NCBI GenBank assembly: GCA_964391185.1
Contig: CAYMIX010000004.1
Span: 48,088-112,087, forward strand
Length of the DNA stretch: 64,000 nt
Source of the DNA: an uncultured Candidatus Peribacteria bacterium
GTDB taxonomy: Bacteria > Patescibacteriota > Gracilibacteria > Peribacterales > Peribacteraceae
Direction of reading: 5' to 3'
Shown: piece after piece, positions 13,151 to 60,635 of the stretch
Layout of the letters: each line of letters opens with the position of its first letter
Numbering within the stretch: position 1 is the stretch's first letter
The notes under the pieces: model-generated
Told to the model about the DNA's origin: nothing
Database searches by the model: none
What the model saw: the letters and a program-made list of their open reading frames with translations, nothing else
Program-made: the position numbers and the translations under genes

Positions 13151-14713
13151 ATGTCCAAGCGCCAGTACATCACCACAGCTATCGACTACCCAAATGCCGC
13201 TCCGCACATGGGGCACGTATTGGAGAAAGTATTGGCAGATGTGATGGCTCGTTGGTTTCGGTTGCGTGGCGATGATGTTCGGTTTCAAATTGGTACGGAT
13301 GAGCACGGTATCAAGATTCAGCAGACGGCGAAAAAGCAGGGGATGACAGCGTCTGCATTGGTCGATAACAATGTACCACTCTTTGAAGATTTGTATGCCA
13401 AACTAAATGTCTCCGCAGACATCTTTATTCGCACATCCGATCATCCAGTTACATGGCCAAATGTTGATGCCATCAAGCACCGTCCAACGGTTGAGGCACT
13501 GTGGAATAAGCTGAAGGATGCTGGCATGCTCGAGAAGCGTTCATACACGGGATTGTATTGTCCCGGCTGCGAGCGGTTTGTGACGAAGAAAGATTTGGTC
13601 GATGGTAAATGTCCTGACCACGATCGTATTCCCGATGAAGTGGTGGAAGAGAACTATTTCTTTTTACTTTCGAAGGAATCTGATTGGCTGAAGAAACTGC
13701 TGAAATCTGATTATAAAATCGTCCCTGACTATCGCAGTGAAGAAACTCTCGCGCTGCTTGAACGCGGTCTTGAAGACGTATCGTTCTCACGCCCTAAGTC
13801 GAGCTTGGCGTGGGGCATTCCAGTTCCGGGCGACCCAGACCAAACTATGTATGTATGGTGTGATGCGCTGACGAACTATGTCTCAGGATTGGGATTGCTG
13901 ACGGATCATGCCAAGAATGAATACTGGGATGATGCCGAAGTGATGCACGTGATCGGCAAAGACATCGCGCGTTTCCATGCGCTCATCTGGCCGGCGATGC
14001 TCAAACATGCGGGAATCCGCACACCAGATCGTCTCCTGATGCACGGATTTGTGACGAGCGAAGGGCAAAAAATGAGTAAGAGCTTGGGCAACGTTGTTGA
14101 TCCTGTCGACGCACTCGCAAAATTCAGCGGTAACCCAGACCCTATTCGCTTTTTCCTCTGTCACGAAATTCCTGTCGGACGAGATGGAGATTTCAGCTGG
14201 AAGCGCTTAGAAGAAATCTATGATAGTAAACTGCGCAATCAGCTTGGTAACATGCTGAACCGTGTGCTTGTGATGCTCAAGAAAGAAAACGCAGATCTGA
14301 CAATTCCTGTGTCTGCGGATGATCAAGAAGGAACGAAGGCGCTTTGGAAAACATACAGCGACGCCCTCGATGCATTTGATATTCACGCAGCTATCCAGAT
14401 GATTACAACGGGAATCGATAAAATGAACGCGAACTTCAACGAAGCTCAGCCATGGAAAAAAGAAGGAGCAGACCGTCTCACGACACTTTCAACGTTTGCA
14501 GAATTGCTACGCCTGACAGCGTTGATGCTTTTGCCATTCGTGCCAGATGCTGCCTATAGAATGTCGAAGCAGTTAAATGTGCCGTATGCAGAGTTGATGC
14601 TCGAGAAAACCTTTGTGCTGACAGATGAACTCAAAGCCTGGGGCGGAGCGAAGGATTGGAAGAGAGTAGGCGAGCCATCGATACTGTTTGCACCGCTTGA
14701 ACCGAAGGAGTAA
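13151..14713 (+). CDS. metG: Methionine--tRNA ligase
   Basis: Start moved to ATG 13151. AIDYPNAAPHMGHV (HIGH-type), KMSKSLGN, Cys knuckles CPGC...CPDH. Confidence 0.9.
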   Translation: MSKRQYITTAIDYPNAAPHMGHVLEKVLADVMARWFRLRGDDVRFQIGTDEHGIKIQQTAKKQGMTASALVDNNVPLFEDLYAKLNVSADIFIRTSDHPVTWPNVDAIKHRPTVEALWNKLKDAGMLEKRSYTGLYCPGCERFVTKKDLVDGKCPDHDRIPDEVVEENYFFLLSKESDWLKKLLKSDYKIVPDYRSEETLALLERGLEDVSFSRPKSSLAWGIPVPGDPDQTMYVWCDALTNYVSGLGLLTDHAKNEYWDDAEVMHVIGKDIARFHALIWPAMLKHAGIRTPDRLLMHGFVTSEGQKMSKSLGNVVDPVDALAKFSGNPDPIRFFLCHEIPVGRDGDFSWKRLEEIYDSKLRNQLGNMLNRVLVMLKKENADLTIPVSADDQEGTKALWKTYSDALDAFDIHAAIQMITTGIDKMNANFNEAQPWKKEGADRLTTLSTFAELLRLTALMLLPFVPDAAYRMSKQLNVPYAELMLEKTFVLTDELKAWGGAKDWKRVGEPSILFAPLEPKE

Positions 14714-24818: not shown

Positions 24819-24819
24819 A

Positions 24820-24927
24820 AGTTCGAAATCCGAAACTCGAAACAAGTCTGAATAGAAAATTGTTTAACCGTTCTAAATTCAAAACATTTAGATTTGTTTC
24901 GGATTTCGAACTTCGTGCTTCGGATTT
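24820..24927. repeat. MITE-like palindromic element, CGAAATCCGAA family, copy A
   Basis: Arms gttcgaaatccgaaactcgaaacaagtctgaat / atttagatttgtttcggatttcgaacttcgtgcttcggattt. Confidence 0.75.
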
Positions 24928-25313: not shown

Positions 25314-26408
25314 TCAGAAGCCCCTGCGCCACTTGCGGACAAACTCAAACGCACGTGTCACGTAATACGAGTTCTTCAGAGGAATATCGACGCAGTGCAT
25401 GAGGGGTAATGGCTTTCCGCCGAATCCCGTCTTAAATGTCGTCACACCTGCGAACGGATGATGCTTATCGATAATTACTTCGTCACCGTTTTCCAATGAC
25501 TTCCTCGGAGCGATTCCCCAGAAGTTATAGATATCATCACCACGACCGAGAGCTTCTTTAATAGCTGTCCACTGCAGTAAATAACTCGCTGGAATCTTCG
25601 CATACTTATGCGTACTCGCACCGTGGTGATAGCTGGTAATCCCACCAAAGCTCATATGCACAGAAGCTGCGACCGCTTCTCCTTGGTATCGCGCGACATA
25701 GACGATCGCCTGATTCTTTGGGGCGAAGTGTTTCACTTGTGCGCGAATATAGGAATCGCGATAGGGGACAAAGTGATGACGCTTGAAGGTTTCTTTCTGG
25801 AGCTCGAAGTAGATCTCCAGATCCTTAAGAGGATCTTTCGAAGCTTCTACGGTCACGCCTTCACGTTGTGCCCTTCCAACTAAGTTTCTTGTCGTCTTTC
25901 TCATATCTGCAAGAATGCTCTCTTCAGAGCGTTTCGAGTTTCGGATTTCGTGCTTCGAGTTTCCCGCATTCCATCTATCACCTTCATTTAGCGGGATGTA
26001 CCACGTGTATTCAGATAAAAGATGCAGCGGAGAATCTTTCGCTCCAGCCTGATGCAGCTGTTCGATGCGAGGATCTTGTGCAGTCCAGAACGGACTCATC
26101 CGAATAAACGAACACTGATGATCGCGCGCGGCGTTCTTGAGAGCTTCAAGAATCTGTTGTAATTGATCTGGTGATGAGAGCAGTGGTCCGTACTGCACCA
26201 TCAGGTGGCGTCCACGGCGCGCAGGAACGACGATCGCCTGAGCAACGCCAGTTATGACGTTATCCTCTCGTACTTCGATCCTGATGGGTTCCTGACCGAT
26301 ATCCCGATACACCTCGCCCATCGTCCAGCTCTGGAGAAAGAGTGGAAACTGTTGAGCACTCACGAATGCATCCCATTGAGCCGAATCTGTAGCTGACTGA
26401 ACGTGCAT
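25314..26408 (-). CDS. FemAB-family peptidoglycan interpeptide-bridge peptidyltransferase (FemX/MurM-like)
   Basis: FLQSW.WGEV-type N-terminus, YHHGAS.HKY...PASYLLQW, FKTGFGG. Confidence 0.8.
   Translation of the reverse strand: MHVQSATDSAQWDAFVSAQQFPLFLQSWTMGEVYRDIGQEPIRIEVREDNVITGVAQAIVVPARRGRHLMVQYGPLLSSPDQLQQILEALKNAARDHQCSFIRMSPFWTAQDPRIEQLHQAGAKDSPLHLLSEYTWYIPLNEGDRWNAGNSKHEIRNSKRSEESILADMRKTTRNLVGRAQREGVTVEASKDPLKDLEIYFELQKETFKRHHFVPYRDSYIRAQVKHFAPKNQAIVYVARYQGEAVAASVHMSFGGITSYHHGASTHKYAKIPASYLLQWTAIKEALGRGDDIYNFWGIAPRKSLENGDEVIIDKHHPFAGVTTFKTGFGGKPLPLMHCVDIPLKNSYYVTRAFEFVRKWRRGF
25931..25964. repeat. Solo arm of the CGAAATCCGAA MITE family, in frame inside the FemAB-like CDS
   Basis: gtttcgagtttcggatttcgtgcttcgagtttcc encodes NSKHEIRNSKRS on the minus strand. 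It is nearly identical to the arm of copy A. Confidence 0.7.
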
Positions 26409-29963: not shown

Positions 29964-30083
29964 GGGAAATCCGAAGCACGAAGTTCGAAATCCGGAACAA
30001 ATCTGAGTGTTTGAATTTAGAATGTTTTTAAACATTCACGATTCAGATTTGTCTCGAGTTTCGAGTTTCGGATTTCGAGTTTG
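29964..30083. repeat. MITE-like palindromic element, CGAAATCCGAA family, copy C
   Basis: Arms gggaaatccgaagcacgaagttcgaaatccggaacaaatctgagt / attcagatttgtctcgagtttcgagtttcggatttcgagtttg. Confidence 0.75.
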
Positions 30084-37987: not shown

Positions 37988-38038
37988 GAAGGTTACCTTA
38001 GCATGAGATCTCTGTCATTTTTTCCCCCATTGATTTCT

Positions 38039-38560
38039 ATGTACAAAACTCGATTGATGATTGTACTTTCATGCGTATCACTTTTGGGTGCATGTAATGC
38101 ATCTACAACAACAGAAGATTCCGATTCTTCATCGTCATCGATGATGATGGAAGATGCCAGCTCTTCGTTCGATCCAAATGCTCCATTCCTCGATGACGAT
38201 GCATCTTCGTCCGATGGAGTAGAACTCAATGTGCATTCGAGCGAGTCCGCATCAGCAATGACGACTTCTGCACCATCGGCAGCAGTACCACGTGTCATCA
38301 CCGTCTCCGTGACTGATTGGTCTTTTTCTCCAACAATGATCAATGTAAAGAAAGGTGAAAAAGTTCAGCTCAAACTCGTTGGTGGTACAGGTATTCACAG
38401 CTTTGCTGTTCCAGGACTCGACATGAATGTTCGTATCGAAGCTGGTCAGACAGTGATTGTCGACTTGCCAACAGATATTGCTGGATCATTTGATGCTTCC
38501 TGCCGCATCCCATGTGGACCTGGGCACAAGGATATGAAGGCGACGGTTGTGATTGCGTAA
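38039..38560 (+). CDS. Lipoprotein with cupredoxin domain carrying a CuA-type motif
   Basis: LLGAC lipobox, acidic/Ser linker, GIHSFAVP and CRIPCGPGHKDM (C-x3-C-G-x2-H-x2-M). Confidence 0.65.
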   Translation: MYKTRLMIVLSCVSLLGACNASTTTEDSDSSSSSMMMEDASSSFDPNAPFLDDDASSSDGVELNVHSSESASAMTTSAPSAAVPRVITVSVTDWSFSPTMINVKKGEKVQLKLVGGTGIHSFAVPGLDMNVRIEAGQTVIVDLPTDIAGSFDASCRIPCGPGHKDMKATVVIA

Positions 38561-38612
38561 TATTTCTATTTTGTAGAGACGTGCGAATCGCACGTCTCTA
38601 CAATTGGTTTAT

Positions 38613-39251
38613 ATGAAACGTTTCATTCCTGCATTAATCGCCTTAATCATTTTCGCCTGCACGGCGATTTATTCACGTCAGCCTCGTGCGAACCCAGACC
38701 CTAACCACACGCATGCTGACTTCGCGATTTGGATCAACGGACAGATGGCGGATTTCACTGATCAAAAATATCAGAGTGAAGCGTATGACCCTGAAAGTGG
38801 TAACCAAGTTCGTGTGGACCCAATGCGTAAGTACCTACATTTACATGATGGGAATGGTCACGTGCTACATCGTCACAAGCCAGGGCTGACATTTGGAGAG
38901 TTCTTGGAATCCCTCGGTATAGTTATCAGCAAGAGTGGACTAAACCTTTGCATGGAAATTCCTGGGAAACAAAATGAATGTGAGAATGAAGCATTGCACA
39001 TCAATTGGGTGATGATTGTGAATGGTGAACGCAAGCCGTTCTTTGATATCGCATATGATTTCAATGATGGCGACAAGATTCTCATCGAGCTTCCACAGAC
39101 TGATGCAGAAGATATTCCCATGGTGTGGGAGCACTGGGGACTGATGACGGATGACGCATGTATGTTCTCCAAAACGTGTCCATGGCGCGGTGCACCTCCA
39201 ACGGAAAACTGTCTCGCAGATGCTTCTATTCCATGTGTCATTCCCGACTAA
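38613..39251 (+). CDS. Secreted/anchored His-rich protein of unknown function
   Basis: HTHADFAIWINGQ ... LHLHDGNGHVLHRH ... LTFGEFLESLG conserved-looking metal-ligand pattern; Cys-rich C-terminus. Confidence 0.55.
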   Translation: MKRFIPALIALIIFACTAIYSRQPRANPDPNHTHADFAIWINGQMADFTDQKYQSEAYDPESGNQVRVDPMRKYLHLHDGNGHVLHRHKPGLTFGEFLESLGIVISKSGLNLCMEIPGKQNECENEALHINWVMIVNGERKPFFDIAYDFNDGDKILIELPQTDAEDIPMVWEHWGLMTDDACMFSKTCPWRGAPPTENCLADASIPCVIPD

Positions 39252-39263
39252 TGACTAAATTGA

Positions 39264-39298
39264 GCGTGTCATCCTGAGCCCGACGAAGGAGACGCGCG
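39264..39298 (+). repeat. REP-like element, TCCT/AGGA variant
   Basis: gcgtgtcatcctgagcccgacgaaggagacgcgc. Confidence 0.6.
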
Positions 39299-39300
39299 AA

Positions 39301-39330
39301 TGTGATGGTTCGTCGAGCTCACCATGACAC
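39301..39330 (-). repeat. REP-like element, TGGT/ACCA variant (reverse)
   Basis: Reverse complement reads gtgtcatggtgagctcgacgaaccatcaca. Confidence 0.6.
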
Positions 39331-39355
39331 ATTCGATTCCTGATAGACTACTCAT

Positions 39356-39859
39356 ATGACCGACCCCCAAGATTCCACCGCCGGCCAACCTGTAAATGAT
39401 GCAGCAGTGCAAATAGCTGCACTACAAGCAGAACTCGCGAAGCTCAAAGACATCGCAGCTCGCGCTCAGGCAGATCTTCAAAATGCAAAGGCTCGCGTAG
39501 AGCGTGATGGTGAAGAATTGCGTAGGTTCGCATCAGAAACGGTTATCCGTCGCATGCTCCCAACACTCGATAACTTCCAGCGCGCATTCGTGCATATACC
39601 AGAAGAATTGCAGAATCATGAATGGGTGAAGGGTGTTTCTGCTATTGAATCCGACCTGATGAAACAGATGTCTGATGTTGGGCTCAAGAAAATTAAATCT
39701 CTCGGAGAAGTATCCGATCCTAACCGTCATGAAGTAATCAATATTGGTCCAGGCGCAGAGGGTGTTGTGACGGAAGTCTTCGAAGATGGTTATGAGCTGC
39801 ACGGCAAAGTCTTGCGTCCGGCAAAGGTGAAAGTAGGCGATGGGAGCGTGTCATCCTGA
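39356..39859 (+). CDS. grpE: Nucleotide exchange factor GrpE
   Basis: Coiled-coil N-terminus, LLPTLDNFQRA, DPNRHEVI, beta C-domain. The last 4 codons and stop lie in a REP copy. Confidence 0.85.
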   Translation: MTDPQDSTAGQPVNDAAVQIAALQAELAKLKDIAARAQADLQNAKARVERDGEELRRFASETVIRRMLPTLDNFQRAFVHIPEELQNHEWVKGVSAIESDLMKQMSDVGLKKIKSLGEVSDPNRHEVINIGPGAEGVVTEVFEDGYELHGKVLRPAKVKVGDGSVSS

Positions 39860-39876
39860 GCCCGGACGAAGGACAT
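39848..39876 (+). repeat. REP-like element, TCCT/AGGA variant, overlapping the grpE stop
   Basis: gtgtcatcctgagcccggacgaaggacat. Confidence 0.6.
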
Positions 39877-39884
39877 GCCTTAAC

Positions 39885-39914
39885 GTGTCATGGTGAGCGG
39901 AGACGAATCCATAC
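39885..39914 (+). repeat. REP-like element, TGGT/ACCA variant
   Basis: gtgtcatggtgagcggagacgaatccatac. Confidence 0.6.
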
Positions 39915-39923
39915 ACATTCAGG

Positions 39924-40574
39924 TTAGCTCAATGATTGTGTCGTAATCAGAATGAGGAAAATTCCGATCGTATTGAAGAAGAAGCAGGTGAAGGCAAATG
40001 TTCTTTCTTTGATCTCACTCATACCACCTAAGAGCGTCACGCCAATTTCATCCGGAAGAGGGGATGCAATGATAATGCCGGCGAAGGTCCAGAGAATGTA
40101 TTCGCGAATACGTTCAGGAACACTTTCATGATGCAGCTTTTCACCGACCCAACGGAATACTGCTGTCGTGCGAAGCTTGTGGAGCTCATCAGCAAATGAG
40201 AAGCGAATCCATTCGAAGATGCACATATCCGAAAGAACCGCGCCGATACCGGCAACAAGCGCGCCGAGCCCTGGGTGCACTTCGTCTGCCATCGCGATGA
40301 AAATGGCGATTGCAAAAGGCGTTGTAAATCCGAAGGAAAAGAGTGCGCCGCCGAGGAACATGGAGATGTAGCCGTGACCGTGAAGGTATACTGGCAATGC
40401 ATTAAAAAGGCCTATTTGATACAGCACGTAGGCAAGAATAAACGTGCAGCAGAGCAGAAGAAGTTTTGGATACTGTATGTATGTTTTCACATATTTATTA
40501 TACCAAAAAATGGGTATTTTGGCTATAGGCGCCACGTCATCCTGAGGTGCCCGCACGATGGATTCGAGGCTCAT
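39924..40574 (-). CDS. Polytopic membrane protein, unknown function (start uncertain)
   Basis: Hydrophobic helices throughout. The annotated N-terminus MSLESIVRAPQDDVAP is encoded by REP-like sequence; an alternative GTG lies near 40490. Confidence 0.55.
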   Translation of the reverse strand: MSLESIVRAPQDDVAPIAKIPIFWYNKYVKTYIQYPKLLLLCCTFILAYVLYQIGLFNALPVYLHGHGYISMFLGGALFSFGFTTPFAIAIFIAMADEVHPGLGALVAGIGAVLSDMCIFEWIRFSFADELHKLRTTAVFRWVGEKLHHESVPERIREYILWTFAGIIIASPLPDEIGVTLLGGMSEIKERTFAFTCFFFNTIGIFLILITTQSLS

Positions 40575-40637
40575 CTTCGCTACGCTCAGATTCGCACCTC
40601 ACCATGACGTGCGGTGCCTCGAAGGACCGTGGCGCCA

Positions 40638-41951
40638 CTATGCTTTTATCAGTTCTTGAAACTGCCCTCCTTTGTCTTCAAAGTTCTTAAACATGCCGTA
40701 GCTTGGCGATGCGGTTGAAAGGAGGGTGATTGGATTTAGGACATCGGACTTAGGACATCGGATGGCTGTATCGACAGCTTCTTTCATTGATGCTGCTTCG
40801 TGGAATTCCACCTGTGCATTCGCTGCCTGAATTGCTGCTTTAATCTTGGGTCCGGAACCTGGGAAGAGGATAACGTTTTTTACCGATGACAATGCGATGC
40901 GCTCGCCAAGTGTACCGAAGTCATAGCCGCGGTCTTGGCCACCCAAAATAATCGTCTGCACGCGGCCCGCCAGACCGTTGTCGGGCTGGTCACCGAGTGC
41001 ATCAAGCGCAGCAATTGTACTTTCTGGTGTGGTGGAAATGGCATCATCCACCCAATCGATTCCGTGATAGTTTCCGACGAATTCAAGGCGATGTGGGAGT
41101 CCTTTAAAGTTTTTGATTACATCGATTATTGTTGTATCGCTGATGCCCAATTCCTGTGCGACACGCGTTGCAGCACCAATGTTACTCAAGTTATGTGCGC
41201 CGAGTAATTTTGTTTCTTCTATCGCAACTGGAGCATCTTCAGCGGAGAAGGGGAGTTTGCGAGCTGCTCCTTCTTTTGCGATTTCGATCGCTCCATGGGA
41301 AGACTGATTGAAGAACAACATGTCATCAGCCTTCTGGAAACGTGCGATGTGTTTCTTGGCTTCCAAATATGCATCGATACTTCCATGGTAATCCAAATGT
41401 TCCGGGAAAAAGCTCGTGACCACGGCTATGTGCGGGCTCGTTGTAAGAAGCATGAGTTGATAGCTGCTCATTTCCAATACAACGTACGTTCCTTTTTTGA
41501 CATCAGCTAGATGTGCAATCGCGGGGTCTCCGATATTTCCCAAGAGTAGTACATCTTTTTTTGCAGCCGAAAGAATCGCCGCGATCAGACTCGAAGTCGT
41601 ACTTTTTCCTTTGGATCCTGTGACGCCGATGATGGTTGCTCCATGGTCGGCGATGGTATCGAGGAAGACTTGTGTGCTCGTGGTAAGTGGTAAGTGGGAT
41701 GTGTCAGGCAATTCCTTTGGAGGGATGCCTGGGGATGTAACAATCACATCGAATTTATTCAGATTATGTAACCAACCTGAACCAACTTGTAACCAATGTT
41801 TTGCGTTCTCCGACTTCACAGATTCATCTTTATCAGCAATCGTTATTTCGCATGTAGGAGCGAATTTCTCGAGAGCGCTTACAACAGCTTTTCCTTCGCG
41901 ACCGTAGCCGAGGACGCATATATTTTTGCCGGCAAAGTCTGCGATCTTCAT
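40638..41951 (-). CDS. murD: UDP-N-acetylmuramoyl-L-alanine--glutamate ligase (MurD or MurD2-type)
   Basis: VLGYGREGKA Rossmann N-domain, GVTGSKGKSTTSS P-loop, Mur C-domain; ATGA overlap with the upstream gene. Confidence 0.85.
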   Translation of the reverse strand: MKIADFAGKNICVLGYGREGKAVVSALEKFAPTCEITIADKDESVKSENAKHWLQVGSGWLHNLNKFDVIVTSPGIPPKELPDTSHLPLTTSTQVFLDTIADHGATIIGVTGSKGKSTTSSLIAAILSAAKKDVLLLGNIGDPAIAHLADVKKGTYVVLEMSSYQLMLLTTSPHIAVVTSFFPEHLDYHGSIDAYLEAKKHIARFQKADDMLFFNQSSHGAIEIAKEGAARKLPFSAEDAPVAIEETKLLGAHNLSNIGAATRVAQELGISDTTIIDVIKNFKGLPHRLEFVGNYHGIDWVDDAISTTPESTIAALDALGDQPDNGLAGRVQTIILGGQDRGYDFGTLGERIALSSVKNVILFPGSGPKIKAAIQAANAQVEFHEAASMKEAVDTAIRCPKSDVLNPITLLSTASPSYGMFKNFEDKGGQFQELIKA

Positions 41952-43360
41952 AGGTTCTCGATCAATGGCTTGAATGGTGCAGGAAGGCTTTCGAGTGAAG
42001 CGCTGGAAATACTTTCTTCAATCACTTCTTTCGGGTCCTTAATATGTGGTAACGCTTCAGCAATAAACATTTTCATCGCAGCAGTGTCATCGTATTGCTT
42101 TGTCTTATGTGCAAGCAAGAACGCCGCCGCTACCTCACGCGCAGTTCCGACGCATTCAAATGGCTTGTGGCCTTCGATGCCCAAGAGTTCGCGATAGAGC
42201 GGAAGCAATGCTTCATCTTCAAACAAACTGTGATTGAAGATCTGCTTCATTTCGTCTGGCTCCAAAAATGGTGCAAAAATTGCAAAGCTAAACGCGCACT
42301 TAGGACACTCGGTACACCAACGCGGCCCCACCCCACTCGTTACACGAGTGTTCCTCCCCCCTTGGGGGAGGGATTTATGGTGGGGGCGGATGTGCCAGTT
42401 GCGGTTGCAGCTGGTGAAAAGTGGCAAGTAGCGCTCGTACTGAACCAATTCATGTGCGATCTGCAATTCGCTGAGTGGTCGCAACATGCTGAAGACCGTT
42501 ACATTCGGAGAAATATTCGTATGGATGTACTCATTCAATAAGTTTTCAAATTGCAGGCTCTTACTCCACTGATGATTCACATCGCGGTCGCCGTGTTTGA
42601 AGTTTCCTTCATCTGCACTGCGTTCATTGCTGAATGCGACGTATGGATGATCTGTAAGTAACGCGATGATGACTGTGAGACAGCTCAAATATGCCGTGAT
42701 AGGAATGTGTCCGTTGAGTGCACCTTCTGCATTGAGGTCGAAAAGCGCTCCGGAAAGTTTTCGTTCGATGGTAATCATCGGGAGTCCTGCAGTGCGCGCC
42801 ATCTCTACAATGTATGGATGATGACCCAAGCGAAGAAGTGTGAGTTGGAAACCAGATTTCTTGAGGAGTTCGATTGTTACTAATGAATCTTTTCCGCCAC
42901 CGATGGGAACTAAGACCTTAGTGTCATGGTGAGGTGTCATGGTGAGCTCCGACGAACCACGAACCATACCCTCTTTATGTCGCACTTCGCCGAGCTCAGT
43001 GTGACACGGAAAGTTCACGATGCCCGTTGGATCAATATTATTTCTGAAGAAGAATTCTCCGAGTCCATTTTCATACACCGTTTTCCAAAACGTAGATTCT
43101 GGTTCAGAAAGTTTCTGGTTCCTCAGTTCAATTTTTTTTGGCAAACATGTTTTGTAGTAACTGATGCCACCGATCACATGGAGTGCCTGGAGTGCGCGCA
43201 GAACTTCCGGGTCTTTGCAACGGTTAAAGGGAACGTTCGCTGGCAGAACCAATCGCTCAACGAACTCGATTTCGTTATCAAGCCAATAGCGCAGTTCTAT
43301 CGAGTGCGTAGGTTCATCAAAGGCAGCCGATTCAAAAACGAATGATTGATACTGTTTCAT
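41948..43360 (-). CDS. PP-loop (SGGKDS-type) ATP pyrophosphatase-family protein; candidate MurL-like UDP-MurNAc-L-Ala-L-Glu epimerase
   Basis: VPIGGGKDS PP-loop and CNRNW...WCTECPKC Cys cluster; translationally coupled to murD; carries two in-frame repeat insertions. Confidence 0.45.
   Translation of the reverse strand: MKQYQSFVFESAAFDEPTHSIELRYWLDNEIEFVERLVLPANVPFNRCKDPEVLRALQALHVIGGISYYKTCLPKKIELRNQKLSEPESTFWKTVYENGLGEFFFRNNIDPTGIVNFPCHTELGEVRHKEGMVRGSSELTMTPHHDTKVLVPIGGGKDSLVTIELLKKSGFQLTLLRLGHHPYIVEMARTAGLPMITIERKLSGALFDLNAEGALNGHIPITAYLSCLTVIIALLTDHPYVAFSNERSADEGNFKHGDRDVNHQWSKSLQFENLLNEYIHTNISPNVTVFSMLRPLSELQIAHELVQYERYLPLFTSCNRNWHIRPHHKSLPQGGRNTRVTSGVGPRWCTECPKCAFSFAIFAPFLEPDEMKQIFNHSLFEDEALLPLYRELLGIEGHKPFECVGTAREVAAAFLLAHKTKQYDDTAAMKMFIAEALPHIKDPKEVIEESISSASLESLPAPFKPLIENL
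42326..42387. repeat. G-run/C-run structured element, in frame inside the PP-loop gene
   Basis: ccccacc...cactcgttacacgagtg...cctccccccttgggggagg...ggtgggg encodes PHHKSLPQGGRNTRVTSGVG. Confidence 0.55.
42921..42968 (+). repeat. REP-like element (TGGT/ACCA variant, head duplicated), in frame inside the PP-loop gene
   Basis: gtgtcatggtgag gtgtcatggtgagctccgacgaaccacgaaccatac encodes MVRGSSELTMTPHHDT just before the PP-loop. Confidence 0.65.
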
Positions 43361-43445
43361 ACGTAGGGGAAGGATAGCACGGATTGCCTTATGATTCTGC
43401 GGTTTTCTCTAAGCTCAGACTGCGCTAATATGACCCAGCTTTCGT

Positions 43446-43530
43446 GCCATGGTGGCGGAATTGGTATACGCGCGCGACTCAAAATCGCGTTCCGCAAGGA
43501 TTGAGGGTTCGAGTCCCTCCCATGGCACCA
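43446..43530 (+). tRNA. tRNA-Leu (anticodon CAA), long variable arm, CCA encoded
   Basis: gccatgg/ccatggc acceptor, cgcga-CTCAAAA-tcgcg, 14-nt variable arm. Confidence 0.9.
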
Positions 43531-43628
43531 TTCGCAGTGGCGAACTCCTCATGGCAGTCCTTAAAGGGAGCTTCTTTTACATCCAAGCATGATCTTGATT
43601 TCCTGTTCGCCGGGAATATTCTCGGAGC

Positions 43629-44096
43629 ATGACGAGCATTGAATCACCACAACATGTAGATGTTGTTTCAGCCACAGAGATTCCACAGGGGCAAAAACCC
43701 GCAATTACTTTTACACAGGAACAACTTGTAGCTGCTTATCAGCAAATTGTTGCCGAAAGAACGGCAGAAAAAGATGCAGCGGATGCAGTTGCTGCTCATC
43801 TTTCAGCTGAGACAGGTTTCAAATTTGAAGTGCCAATGATTGATTCTCGATCAGGGGATCAAAAAATGATGACGCCCGACAGGCACGTGCACTCCTTGGT
43901 CATGCGACTGACCGAACATGATGATTGGGCAGGTGCACTGCGCATTCTTGCACAACATGGTGTGCACATGCGGCCTTGGTCAGGAAACTTGAGTCATGAG
44001 CCGACCGGTACATATGCACCACCAGCTGATTTGCATCCTGCAGCCCAGGAGAGTTATTCATTGATTATCAAAGAATTGCTCCTGGTGGATTGTTAA
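43629..44096 (+). CDS. Hypothetical protein
   Basis: ORF only. Confidence 0.45.
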   Translation: MTSIESPQHVDVVSATEIPQGQKPAITFTQEQLVAAYQQIVAERTAEKDAADAVAAHLSAETGFKFEVPMIDSRSGDQKMMTPDRHVHSLVMRLTEHDDWAGALRILAQHGVHMRPWSGNLSHEPTGTYAPPADLHPAAQESYSLIIKELLLVDC

Positions 44097-44180
44097 CAGA
44101 ATGAAAAAGTGGAACCGTTCGCTTCTTCACCGAGGTTCCGATTTGTCTCTTGTATCTCGTCTCTTGTATCTTAGATACAT

Positions 44181-45101
44181 ATGTACGACGTTTTAATCAT
44201 CGGTCTCGGTTGCGCCGGATACACAGCAGCTATTTACAGTGCGCGTTACAAACTTAAAACCTATCTCGTGGGCAATGTGCAGGGTGGGCTTGGTATCACC
44301 GCTGCAGAAGTAGGGAACTGGCCTGGTGATATGGAAATCACCGGACCAGACTTGATGGAAAAGTTTCACAAGCACGCAGCAAGTTTCGAAGAAGTCACCG
44401 TGAAGCTCGCACGTATCGATAAAATAGAAAAGATCGAAAGTGGTTTTCGTTTACATCAAGATGATGGCTGCACGGTCGATGGAAAAACAATTATCTTCGC
44501 GATGGGCAGTAACAAGCGTCATTTGGGCGTGCCAGGGGAAGAGCGTTTATCAGGAAAAGGTGTCACGTACTGTGCGACATGCGATGCGTTCTTCTATCGT
44601 GGAAAAGATGTCGCTGTGATAGGTGGTGGAGATAGTGCCGTCGAAGGTGCTGCGATTGCCGCTCAGGTTGCGCGTCGTGTGTACCTGATCCACCGTCGCG
44701 ATAGCTTCCGCGCAGAGCCATACTGGGTTGATCGTGTGAAATCCAAAGATAACGTGACGATGGTTCTCAATACGAACATCACAGAAATCTTGGGTGATCA
44801 GAAGGTATCCGGTATCAAGATCGATACGCCATTCGAGGGGTCCAACGAGATTAAAGTTGATGGTGTGTTTATCGAGATTGGTGCTGACCCAGCGACAAGC
44901 TTGGCACAGTCGATCGGTTGTACAGTGGATGCCAAAGGGTACTTAATTGTTGATAATGCGATGAAAACGCCGGTTCCAGGAGTCTATGGCGCGGGTGATA
45001 TCACCAATGGAAACAATTACTTCGCCCAATTCGTCACGGCAGCAGGAGAAGGTGCTGTGGCTGCAAATAGCGCTTTTGCGTACCTGCAGGCGTCCCATTA
45101 A
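44181..45101 (+). CDS. trxB: Thioredoxin-disulfide reductase
   Basis: IIGLGCAGYTAA FAD motif, redox CATCDA, GGGDSAVEGA NADPH motif. Confidence 0.9.
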   Translation: MYDVLIIGLGCAGYTAAIYSARYKLKTYLVGNVQGGLGITAAEVGNWPGDMEITGPDLMEKFHKHAASFEEVTVKLARIDKIEKIESGFRLHQDDGCTVDGKTIIFAMGSNKRHLGVPGEERLSGKGVTYCATCDAFFYRGKDVAVIGGGDSAVEGAAIAAQVARRVYLIHRRDSFRAEPYWVDRVKSKDNVTMVLNTNITEILGDQKVSGIKIDTPFEGSNEIKVDGVFIEIGADPATSLAQSIGCTVDAKGYLIVDNAMKTPVPGVYGAGDITNGNNYFAQFVTAAGEGAVAANSAFAYLQASH

Positions 45102-59957: not shown

Positions 59958-60074
59958 GAAATCCGAATTTCGAAACTCGAAATCCGAGACAATCACGAAT
60001 TGTTTAAAGTTTCAGAGTTAAAAATTCTTCATTCATATTTGTTTCGAGGTTCGGATTTCGTGTTTCGGGTTTCG
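59958..60074. repeat. MITE-like palindromic element, CGAAATCCGAA family, copy D
   Basis: gaaatccgaatttcgaaactcgaaatccgagacaa ... ttgtttcgaggttcggatttcgtgtttcgggtttcg. Confidence 0.75.
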
Positions 60075-60635
60075 TCAATCTTTTTCTGTATTTAAGAATC
60101 CAACAACCAGCAAAAGAATTGCTGGCAAACAAAACCACACATTTTGATAATCGACCATCGCATGTACGAGTGTGCTGTTTTGTAAGAGTGGTTGCAGCAA
60201 CGGCGCTTGCGCAAGCGTGCTATCGAGTAATGGCTTCGCTGCAATGTATGTAAGGAGTCCACACAGTAACAGACCAGATGTCACAAATCCGAGTGCTCCG
60301 GTGACAATTGGTTCCCATACACCATTGAGATCCTTCGCGTATTCCATTTCAAATCCACCTTTTATTGCGATAAAGATAATCATTGCGGTGAACAGCACGA
60401 GTTTGATGATGGAGATTACGTCCATGCTGAGGCCAAAGCCGAGCATATCGAGCATTGATGCTGATTGTCCGTTGAGCATCTCCAATAAATTGCCGATCGC
60501 CTGTACAGAAACTATCGAGATATAGGACGCAATGATGATTTTTACGGATTCATCTTTTCCAACAATAAAACTGTACGCGACGACTATCGCAAAGAAAATA
60601 ATAACTATTAAGTCCCAAGTGAGTGAAATCTCCAT
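60075..60635 (-). CDS. Polytopic membrane protein (CvpA-like by impression)
   Basis: N-terminal W.DLIVIIFFAIVVAYSFIVG pattern and 4-5 helices. Confidence 0.45.
   Translation of the reverse strand: MEISLTWDLIVIIFFAIVVAYSFIVGKDESVKIIIASYISIVSVQAIGNLLEMLNGQSASMLDMLGFGLSMDVISIIKLVLFTAMIIFIAIKGGFEMEYAKDLNGVWEPIVTGALGFVTSGLLLCGLLTYIAAKPLLDSTLAQAPLLQPLLQNSTLVHAMVDYQNVWFCLPAILLLVVGFLNTEKD

Follow-up and report, generated by a model that had tools for sequence, protein, structure and literature searches.

Two unrelated palindromic elements read in frame in loops of a murL homologue from an uncultured Peribacteria bacterium

We analysed a stretch of 64,000 nt (the window) from the genome of an uncultured Candidatus Peribacteria bacterium (contig CAYMIX010000004.1, positions 48,088–112,087, of GenBank assembly GCA_964391185.1). 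On its minus strand, at 41948..43360, lies a murL homologue whose 470-residue product we call P0001. It is likely that two unrelated small palindromic elements have become fixed in frame within tolerant loops of this gene and that the gene is still functional. The original prediction, made from the sequence alone, had identified two repeat-like segments here. The translations given for them on the minus strand are exact, with MVRGSSELTMTPHHDT forming residues 132–147 and PHHKSLPQGGRNTRVTSGVG residues 326–345, and the frame is open across both, as it is throughout the open reading frame (ORF). The nature and extent of the two elements differ in part from what had been proposed, and we describe each in turn.

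Site 1 lies in the linker between the N-terminal domain of P0001 (residues 1–106) and the PP-loop domain, which begins at residue 148 and carries the PIGGGKDS loop at residues 152–159; the variable linker extends up to residue 147. A repetitive extragenic palindromic (REP) element had been placed at 42921–42968. This segment is indeed a member of a repeat family but is only part of the element, which is a complete inverted hairpin doublet of 87 nt (42921..43007, minus strand) with the sequence CHTELGEVRHKEGMVRGSSELTMTPHHD, equivalent to 29 codons and residues 119–147. The first arm (42978..43007, minus strand), lying upstream and missed by the prediction, has a CACT/AGTG stem instead of the usual CCCT/AGGG. 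The second arm (42934..42967, plus strand) is of the TGGT/ACCA type and contains an internal duplication of 7 nt (GAACCAC then GAACCAT). The two arms are oppositely oriented and separated by a 10-nt spacer, giving a doublet of 74 nt; a tandem duplicate of the arm head (42921..42933, plus strand; 13 nt, GTGTCATGGTGAG) extends this to 87 nt, a length divisible by three.

The same build is found in six other simple doublets of 63–70 nt, located elsewhere in the genome by a scan for head-to-tail doublets, and the 7-nt internal duplication recurs in an intergenic doublet at C2:58162. When up to two mismatches were allowed, the 13-mer GTGTCATGGTGAG occurred 14 times in the window, compared with 1.8 expected, and none of 100 shuffled sequences contained as many copies. 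With at most one mismatch there were 48 copies in the genome. Site 1 therefore belongs to a genome-wide family with the form TGTCA-NNNN-GAG...CGAA, and its arm was also found in 52 of 120 other genomes of the bacterial family, with no matches to the control. Copies are depleted in coding sequence, with 4/30 and 6/29 lying inside long ORFs, which make up 88% of the genome. A short palindromic unit, present in many dispersed copies that are mostly intergenic and often arranged as inverted doublets, has the general features of REP and REPIN sequences. Arms of the family are frequently nested, one hairpin unit lying within the loop of another (window positions 42921–42967; C7:33012-33060, C7:71540-71590 and C3:28673-28751), which suggests that insertion takes place preferentially in the arm loop. 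A separate family of tandem heptamers (TTTCGAG-like), with inverted copies, is present in the window at 24819–24927, 25931–25965, 29964–30083 and 59958–60087.

The relationship between the doublet and the linker is seen from the spacing of the flanking motifs. The distance from GLGEFF to PIGGGKDS is 35–60 residues in 110 homologues, of which the fixed parts account for 18, leaving 17 or more for the variable part. In P0001 the variable linker consists of the 29 repeat-encoded residues and nothing else. Therefore the doublet has replaced the linker rather than merely being added to it. In the nearest relatives, L081 and L082, the linker is occupied by different tandem heptamer arrays. The 13-nt head duplication could have restored the reading frame by lengthening the insertion from 74 to 87 nt, a suggestion to be read alongside the presence of similar head duplications in intergenic copies.

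Site 2 is a G/C-run element with three stems (42321..42388, minus strand), which encodes residues 326–345 between the SCNRNW and WCTECPKC motifs. An outer stem (CCCCACC/GGTGGGG) encloses two hairpins, CCTCCCCC/GGGGGAGG and CACTCG/CGAGTG; the predicted fold has a free energy of −44.8 kcal/mol (z = −3.3), and none of 200 shuffled sequences was as stable. The loop between SCNxNW and WCxxCPKC is 25 residues long in P0001, compared with 11 in L081, L082 and L083 (59–72% identity). Relative to these three nearest homologues the net gain is 14 codons, and a codon alignment indicates that ∼6 ancestral codons were overwritten. As one of two alternatives, both segments had been proposed to form tolerated loops of about 16–20 residues; they do lie in loops, but site 2 is only 14 codons longer than its nearest counterparts, not 20. 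The element sits between C318 and C349, C352 and C355, all four of which are invariant in the alignment and probably form a QueC-like metal site.

Within the host genome, searches using a regular expression with mismatches, blastn-short and nhmmer found no other copy, each returning only site 2 itself, and we therefore ruled out a within-genome repeat. The description of site 2 as a repeat element holds instead for related genomes, in which matches share 82–93% identity with it over 27–41 nt; one of these copies (L088) shares its three-stem design. Of 120 other genomes of the family, 25 contain the pattern CCCCACC-N-CCYTCCCC-loop-GGGGARGG, with up to 21 copies in each and no matches to the reversed control. 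In a relative, another G/C-run copy (L086; G018:C35, ∼14030–14084) adjoins a DnaA-box-like sequence, TTATCCACA, and is apparently intergenic. An exact 20-mer from the site-2 hairpin gave more than 120 matches in metagenomes from many unrelated habitats, and none of the flanks examined was murL-like; these matches show only that such hairpins are common.

We then compared the two sites across homologues. Among 26 aligned and 118 surveyed homologues, none has conserved either the site-1 or the site-2 segment. Both segments are lineage-specific, the outcome that the prediction had anticipated from an alignment of orthologues, and the finding that would have refuted it, homologous residues at these positions, did not emerge. 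The nearest homologue (72% identical) is entirely without the site-2 insert. The site-2 loop is minimal, at 10–11 residues, in 41 of the 118 close homologues and exceeds 12 residues in 75 (64%), reaching 77 residues, with expansions that are unrelated in sequence and often derived from hairpins. Both sites are therefore tolerant loops that have been targeted repeatedly.

Several of these expansions carry recognizable signatures. A PLSP...GEG.G peptide, characteristic of G/C-run hairpins, is found at site 2 in many homologues, and the corresponding DNA of L012 is such a hairpin. A GAAMNPS.ASG segment occupies site 2 in L008, L009, L019, L071 and P0009, and its DNA folds as a hairpin in L009 and L071. 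In P0053 an identical GEGARGWG peptide is present at both sites. TGTCA-type repeat heads are found in the site-1 linker of L039, from a distant genome of the candidate phyla radiation (CPR), and a related tail lies in the matching N-terminal region of L027. Both sites expand repeatedly and independently among homologues.

The identity of the gene is clear. P0001 matches the NCBIfam profile NF041275 (MurL) with 375.2 bits (E = 3.4e-112) over residues 3–464, covering profile positions 6–440 of 447; this profile is a Xanthomonadales-specific equivalog with a cut-off of 700 bits, under which P0001 falls. Precomputed tables assign the Pfam domains MurL_N and MurL_epimerase_C to a protein identical to P0001. 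A Foldseek search gave a probability of 1.00 to TtuA, QueC and NcsA, with a TM-score of 0.63–0.67 when normalized to QueC; a sequence search of the PDB with P0001 returned no relative at E ≤ 0.01. The PIGGGKDS loop and the structural likeness to QueC and TtuA place P0001 among PP-loop ATP pyrophosphatase folds, and the label of PP-loop (MurL-like) gene given by the prediction is correct. The closest homologues come from Peregrinibacteria/Peribacteraceae. Three full-length MurL proteins from Peregrinibacteria (P0008, P0071 and P0080) are named ‘endonuclease domain-containing protein’ at NCBI; they have no room for such a domain, and the name is probably an artefact.

An AlphaFold2 model of P0001, built on 27 sequences, had a mean predicted local distance difference test (pLDDT) score of 86.7 and a predicted TM-score (pTM) of 0.87. 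In this model pLDDT falls below 50 only at residues 123–143 and 324–343, such that the two inserts match the only stretches predicted with low confidence, and the proposal that the segments map to loops is borne out to that extent. P0001 retains the shared residue in every column at which the other 26 aligned MurL sequences do not vary. Outside both sites, the comparison of P0001 with L081 gave a nonsynonymous divergence (dN) of 0.16, with the synonymous divergence (dS) saturated. Genomes of the same genus were unhelpful in dating the inserts because their MurL proteins are only 48–52% identical to P0001; the closest sequences are on short Logan contigs (59–72% identity).

The host genome (1.48 Mb in 31 contigs, 49% G+C) is 98.5% complete and contains murL as a single copy. 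A glutamate racemase profile (PF01177) had no match in it, while 10 of 14 control genomes were positive; D-amino-acid transaminase was not searched for. Judging from its gene content, this genome seems to have no source of D-glutamate for peptidoglycan other than murL. The nucleotide sequence of the murL region is identical in two independent run-level assemblies (SRR16481186 and SRR16481187), and the inserts are therefore not the product of a binning chimera. The murL stop codon overlaps the start of a murD-type ligase gene directly downstream by 4 nt (ATGA). This gene (40638..41951, minus strand) encodes 437 residues, and Mur_ligase_M and Mur_ligase_C Pfam domains are recorded for it on identical Logan contigs. 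A tRNA gene (43446–43527, plus strand; Rfam, 59 bits) lies upstream of murL, at a distance of ∼90 nt and on the other strand. In an Rfam scan of window positions 38000–45000 only this tRNA attained a gathering score, and no hammerhead or other ribozyme was found by Rfam at the repeat copies.

These data are consistent with the following scenario. At site 1 a hairpin doublet would have come to be read as 29 disordered residues of the interdomain linker. At site 2 an element would have replaced ∼6 codons and added 14 overall to the loop that separates the first cysteine from the CxxCxxC of the QueC-like cluster. Neither insert would have been removed, and both would be translated. Selection would have eliminated any insertion that disrupted the reading frame or the protein fold, given that murL is apparently the only D-glutamate route. 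We infer that the elements came in as insertions and did not grow locally, and the conservation of the remainder of the protein suggests that MurL is active with the inserts in place.

A number of points weigh against this interpretation. Neither insert is clean, as ancestral loop codons are missing at both sites, and no target-site duplication is visible at either. The constraint measured by dN and dS spans the whole divergence from a relative that is 72% identical and is compatible with a recent loss of function. Surface exposure of the two inserts is suggested by the model, with pLDDT as its sole basis. Finally, site 2 is a singleton in the genome yet retains three perfect stems, which fits a recent arrival or selection for the hairpins better than passive drift.

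The question of recent loss of function bears on whether murL is a pseudogene, inactivated by the inserts without a stop codon or frameshift, in a cell that obtains D-glutamate-containing precursors by other means or has no peptidoglycan. Both inserts are sizeable and close to functional motifs, one ending four residues before the PP-loop and the other lying within the Cys-cluster loop, and CPR bacteria obtain many of their metabolites from hosts. We nevertheless regard a pseudogene as improbable: all 470 codons remain open, no invariant column has been lost, the murD junction is intact, the model is confident outside the inserts, and the gene is single-copy in a genome where no racemase was found. 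In addition, homologues have inserts of up to 77 residues at the same two places, so both clearly tolerate length. Of the two alternatives in the original prediction, tolerated loops and silent inactivation, the evidence favours the first, given the lineage-specific segments, their low-pLDDT positions, the intact single-copy gene and the lack of a detected racemase.

The perfect stems of site 2 raise a different issue, since there are no sister copies in the genome to homogenize them. Hairpins could be kept for a function, as mRNA structures that slow the ribosome where two domains meet and at the metal-site loop, as RNase or regulatory sites in the murL–murD transcript, or as co-opted peptides. 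Paired stem variants such as CACT/AGTG in the arms would fit such a role, as would the exact placement of both MurL site 1 and a second doublet, in an ADP-forming acyl-CoA synthetase (ACD) gene, at interdomain linkers. The number of cases, three, is too small for a test of linker preference. The same families are mostly intergenic, however, and both sites differ completely between close relatives, with a minimal site-2 loop in 35% of homologues; therefore no particular hairpin or peptide is required, and we give retention for function little chance. Even less credible, and largely refuted, is a reading of the segments as low-complexity loops, either ancestral or locally grown, whose likeness to repeats is fortuitous, or as artefacts of assembly. 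Both sites are variable in length in every lineage, the nearest relatives have simple heptamer arrays at site 1, and site 2 has no second copy in the genome, points in favour of this reading. Against it, both arms of site 1 have their counterparts in intergenic doublets, down to the internal 7-nt duplication, site 2 shares both its design and 82–93% identity with dispersed copies in relatives, and the shuffle controls are clear for both elements; the agreement of two separate run-level assemblies argues against an artefact. The in-frame fixation of two palindromic elements in tolerant loops of a working murL thus continues to be the likely explanation, and both elements belong to repeat families.

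MurL is not the only gene in this genome to contain the site-1 repeat. The ACD gene carries a 66-nt doublet in frame (C2:108221-108286), CHPERDEGQTRGSMVRRAHHD, in its interdomain linker, and this doublet is read in the same frame as MurL site 1 (CHxE...MVR...HHD). A CarA-like ORF has a single arm near its N-terminus (C3:23810-23831), with the opposite-strand reading PFDSAQDD; this looks like an in-frame insertion of 7–8 residues and is a candidate. A match to the repeat pattern in a SufB-like gene (‘CHPELVEG’) was not counted as an insertion, as it is probably native.

The copies of both families are associated with genes for small endonucleases. All four GIY-YIG genes of the genome (PF01541, ∼100–120 residues) have site-1 arms within 250 nt (C7:71048-71510, C6:18035-18504, C2:7807-8112 and C3:46959-47431), compared with a genome density of 0.083 per kb. 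The first of these loci reads as arm, GIY-YIG gene and opposite arm, i.e. a doublet in which the gene replaces the spacer. Across the bacterial family, an arm lies within 200 nt of 24 of 30 GIY-YIG loci, with 5.25 matches per kb as against 0.31 elsewhere in the same loci. Site-1 arms were found near DUF559 genes at only 1 of 30 loci, and a link between these two was dropped.

The DUF559 genes are associated with the site-2 family. The sole DUF559 (Vsr-like) gene in the host genome (C3:65912-66226) is bracketed by two inverted G/C-run hairpins, the whole spanning C3:65795-66300, and its frame extends into the downstream hairpin. A G/C-run hairpin is present within 200 nt at 17 of 30 DUF559 loci in the family, and on both sides at 10 of them; the density is ∼2.6 per kb compared with 0.06 elsewhere.

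We also considered a RAYT-type tyrosine transposase as the mobilizer of the site-1 family. One such gene is present in the host genome (C11:29389-29820; NF047646, 85.4 bits, above the cut-off), flanked by its own inverted hairpins, GGAGCAGCCCTTCG... and ...CGAAGGGCCGCTGCTCC, which are not of the TGTCA type. No site-1 arm lies near it, and arms were found within 250 nt of RAYT genes in relatives at only 1 of 30 loci. A role for RAYT was therefore rejected on present evidence. In a family-wide search, RAYT genes were found in 65 of 100 relatives, with up to nine per genome.

The positions of these genes suggest that small endonucleases, GIY-YIG with site 1 and DUF559 with site 2, are involved in the spread of the hairpins, which they might either move or home into. 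A more speculative idea, to which we attach a rather low probability, is that the two families are not RAYT-type REPs but the ends or preferred landing sites of two tiny selfish elements that consist of an endonuclease gene only and pervade the Peribacteraceae: GIY-YIG between TGTCA-NNNN-GAG arms and DUF559 between G/C-run hairpins. Gene-less miniatures of these would then colonize tolerant loops such as those of MurL. No description of hairpin-ended endonuclease elements was found in the literature searched.

In-frame hairpin repeats inside genes are already known, as intragenic REPs and as Rickettsia palindromic elements (RPEs). What is new here is the presence of two different families in one gene, an interdomain linker encoded wholly by a repeat, the scale of recurrence at both sites, and the association of the site-1 and site-2 families with GIY-YIG and DUF559 endonuclease genes, respectively, not RAYT transposases. 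For annotation, MurL homologues from CPR bacteria differ by tens of residues at two constant positions, and repeat-derived peptides of the ...CHxE...HHD or ...PLSP..GEG.G type should not be taken for domains. For protein evolution, the gene offers a clean natural experiment in which a probably essential enzyme tolerates nearly any stretch of 10–70 residues in its interdomain linker and Cys-cluster loop; the same two places mark safe insertion points for engineering or crystallizing MurL. For the study of mobile DNA, a CPR example is added to the intragenic REP and RPE phenomenon, and the two hairpin families with their endonuclease genes are a testable lead. Existing knowledge of how MurL works is unchanged.

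The characterized counterpart of P0001 is MurL of Xanthomonas oryzae (XOO_1319), which with MurD2 forms an alternative D-glutamate pathway by ATP-dependent, one-way L-to-D epimerization that yields AMP (PMC8788868). P0001 shares its context, being a full-length homologue with an adjoining MurD-type gene and no detectable glutamate racemase. It differs in its score (375 bits against the 700-bit cut-off) and in its host, as the genera in the published distribution, few in number, are proteobacterial and actinobacterial and include no CPR bacteria (PMC8788868). Judged by the profile match alone, both inserts are absent from the characterized enzymes.

At the RNA level, site 2 aligns to the whole whalefall-1 model (RF01762), which comprises two hairpins, one of them with C/G runs, and a GGGUG(A/G)GG tail, but it scores 21.6 bits, short of the gathering threshold of 37, and is thus outside that family. 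The likeness is probably due to G/C-run hairpin repeats being a widespread class.

The behaviour of both elements recalls the RPEs (Ogata et al. 2000), which are summarized in PMC10969869 as palindromes inserted in frame into housekeeping genes where the protein fold can accommodate them. In that description, as here, selfish palindromic DNA lies in frame in unrelated genes that stay functional. Insertion into several unrelated genes is found here for MurL (at two sites), the ACD linker and probably CarA, a likeness of behaviour and not of sequence. The RPEs are ∼100–150 bp long with a conserved peptide for each family, whereas the present elements are 60–87 nt, and no sequence relation is expected. 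A further difference is that one gene here harbours two different families, with insertions recurring in its two loops across a bacterial family.

The site-1 doublets also resemble REPINs, which are mobilized by RAYT (Bertels and Rainey 2011, PMC3116915): both have two inverted hairpin units with a short spacer and tens of dispersed copies, and a RAYT-type gene is present in the genome. Unlike in REPtrons, the site-1 arms do not flank RAYT genes but bracket or adjoin GIY-YIG genes.

A further parallel is with the intragenic REPs tagged by GTAG or CGTC/TGTC (Di Nocera, De Gregorio, Rocco 2013; PMC3733652), whose dimers encode 20–30 amino acids, sometimes twice in one ORF. These and the site-1 family are alike in being short palindromes that are mostly intergenic and often in inverted pairs, with a minority read through in frame. 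They differ in that the site-1 unit has a stem of ∼5 bp and a conserved loop of 11–12 nt (GAGC-NNN-GACGA), compared with stems of 8–9 bp and loops of 4–5 nt in the published families, and in that the site-1 family is tied to GIY-YIG and not RAYT genes, its host is a CPR bacterium (Peribacteria) and the gene is murL and not a DNA-repair gene. CGTC/TGTC-tagged REPs are marked by a terminal tag and by a stem that opens with A-T pairs; the site-1 unit has a (G/T)TGTCA head, which contains TGTC, and its stem starts with AT, the families being compared by description only. With its 29 encoded residues, the site-1 doublet fits the description of an intragenic REP dimer.

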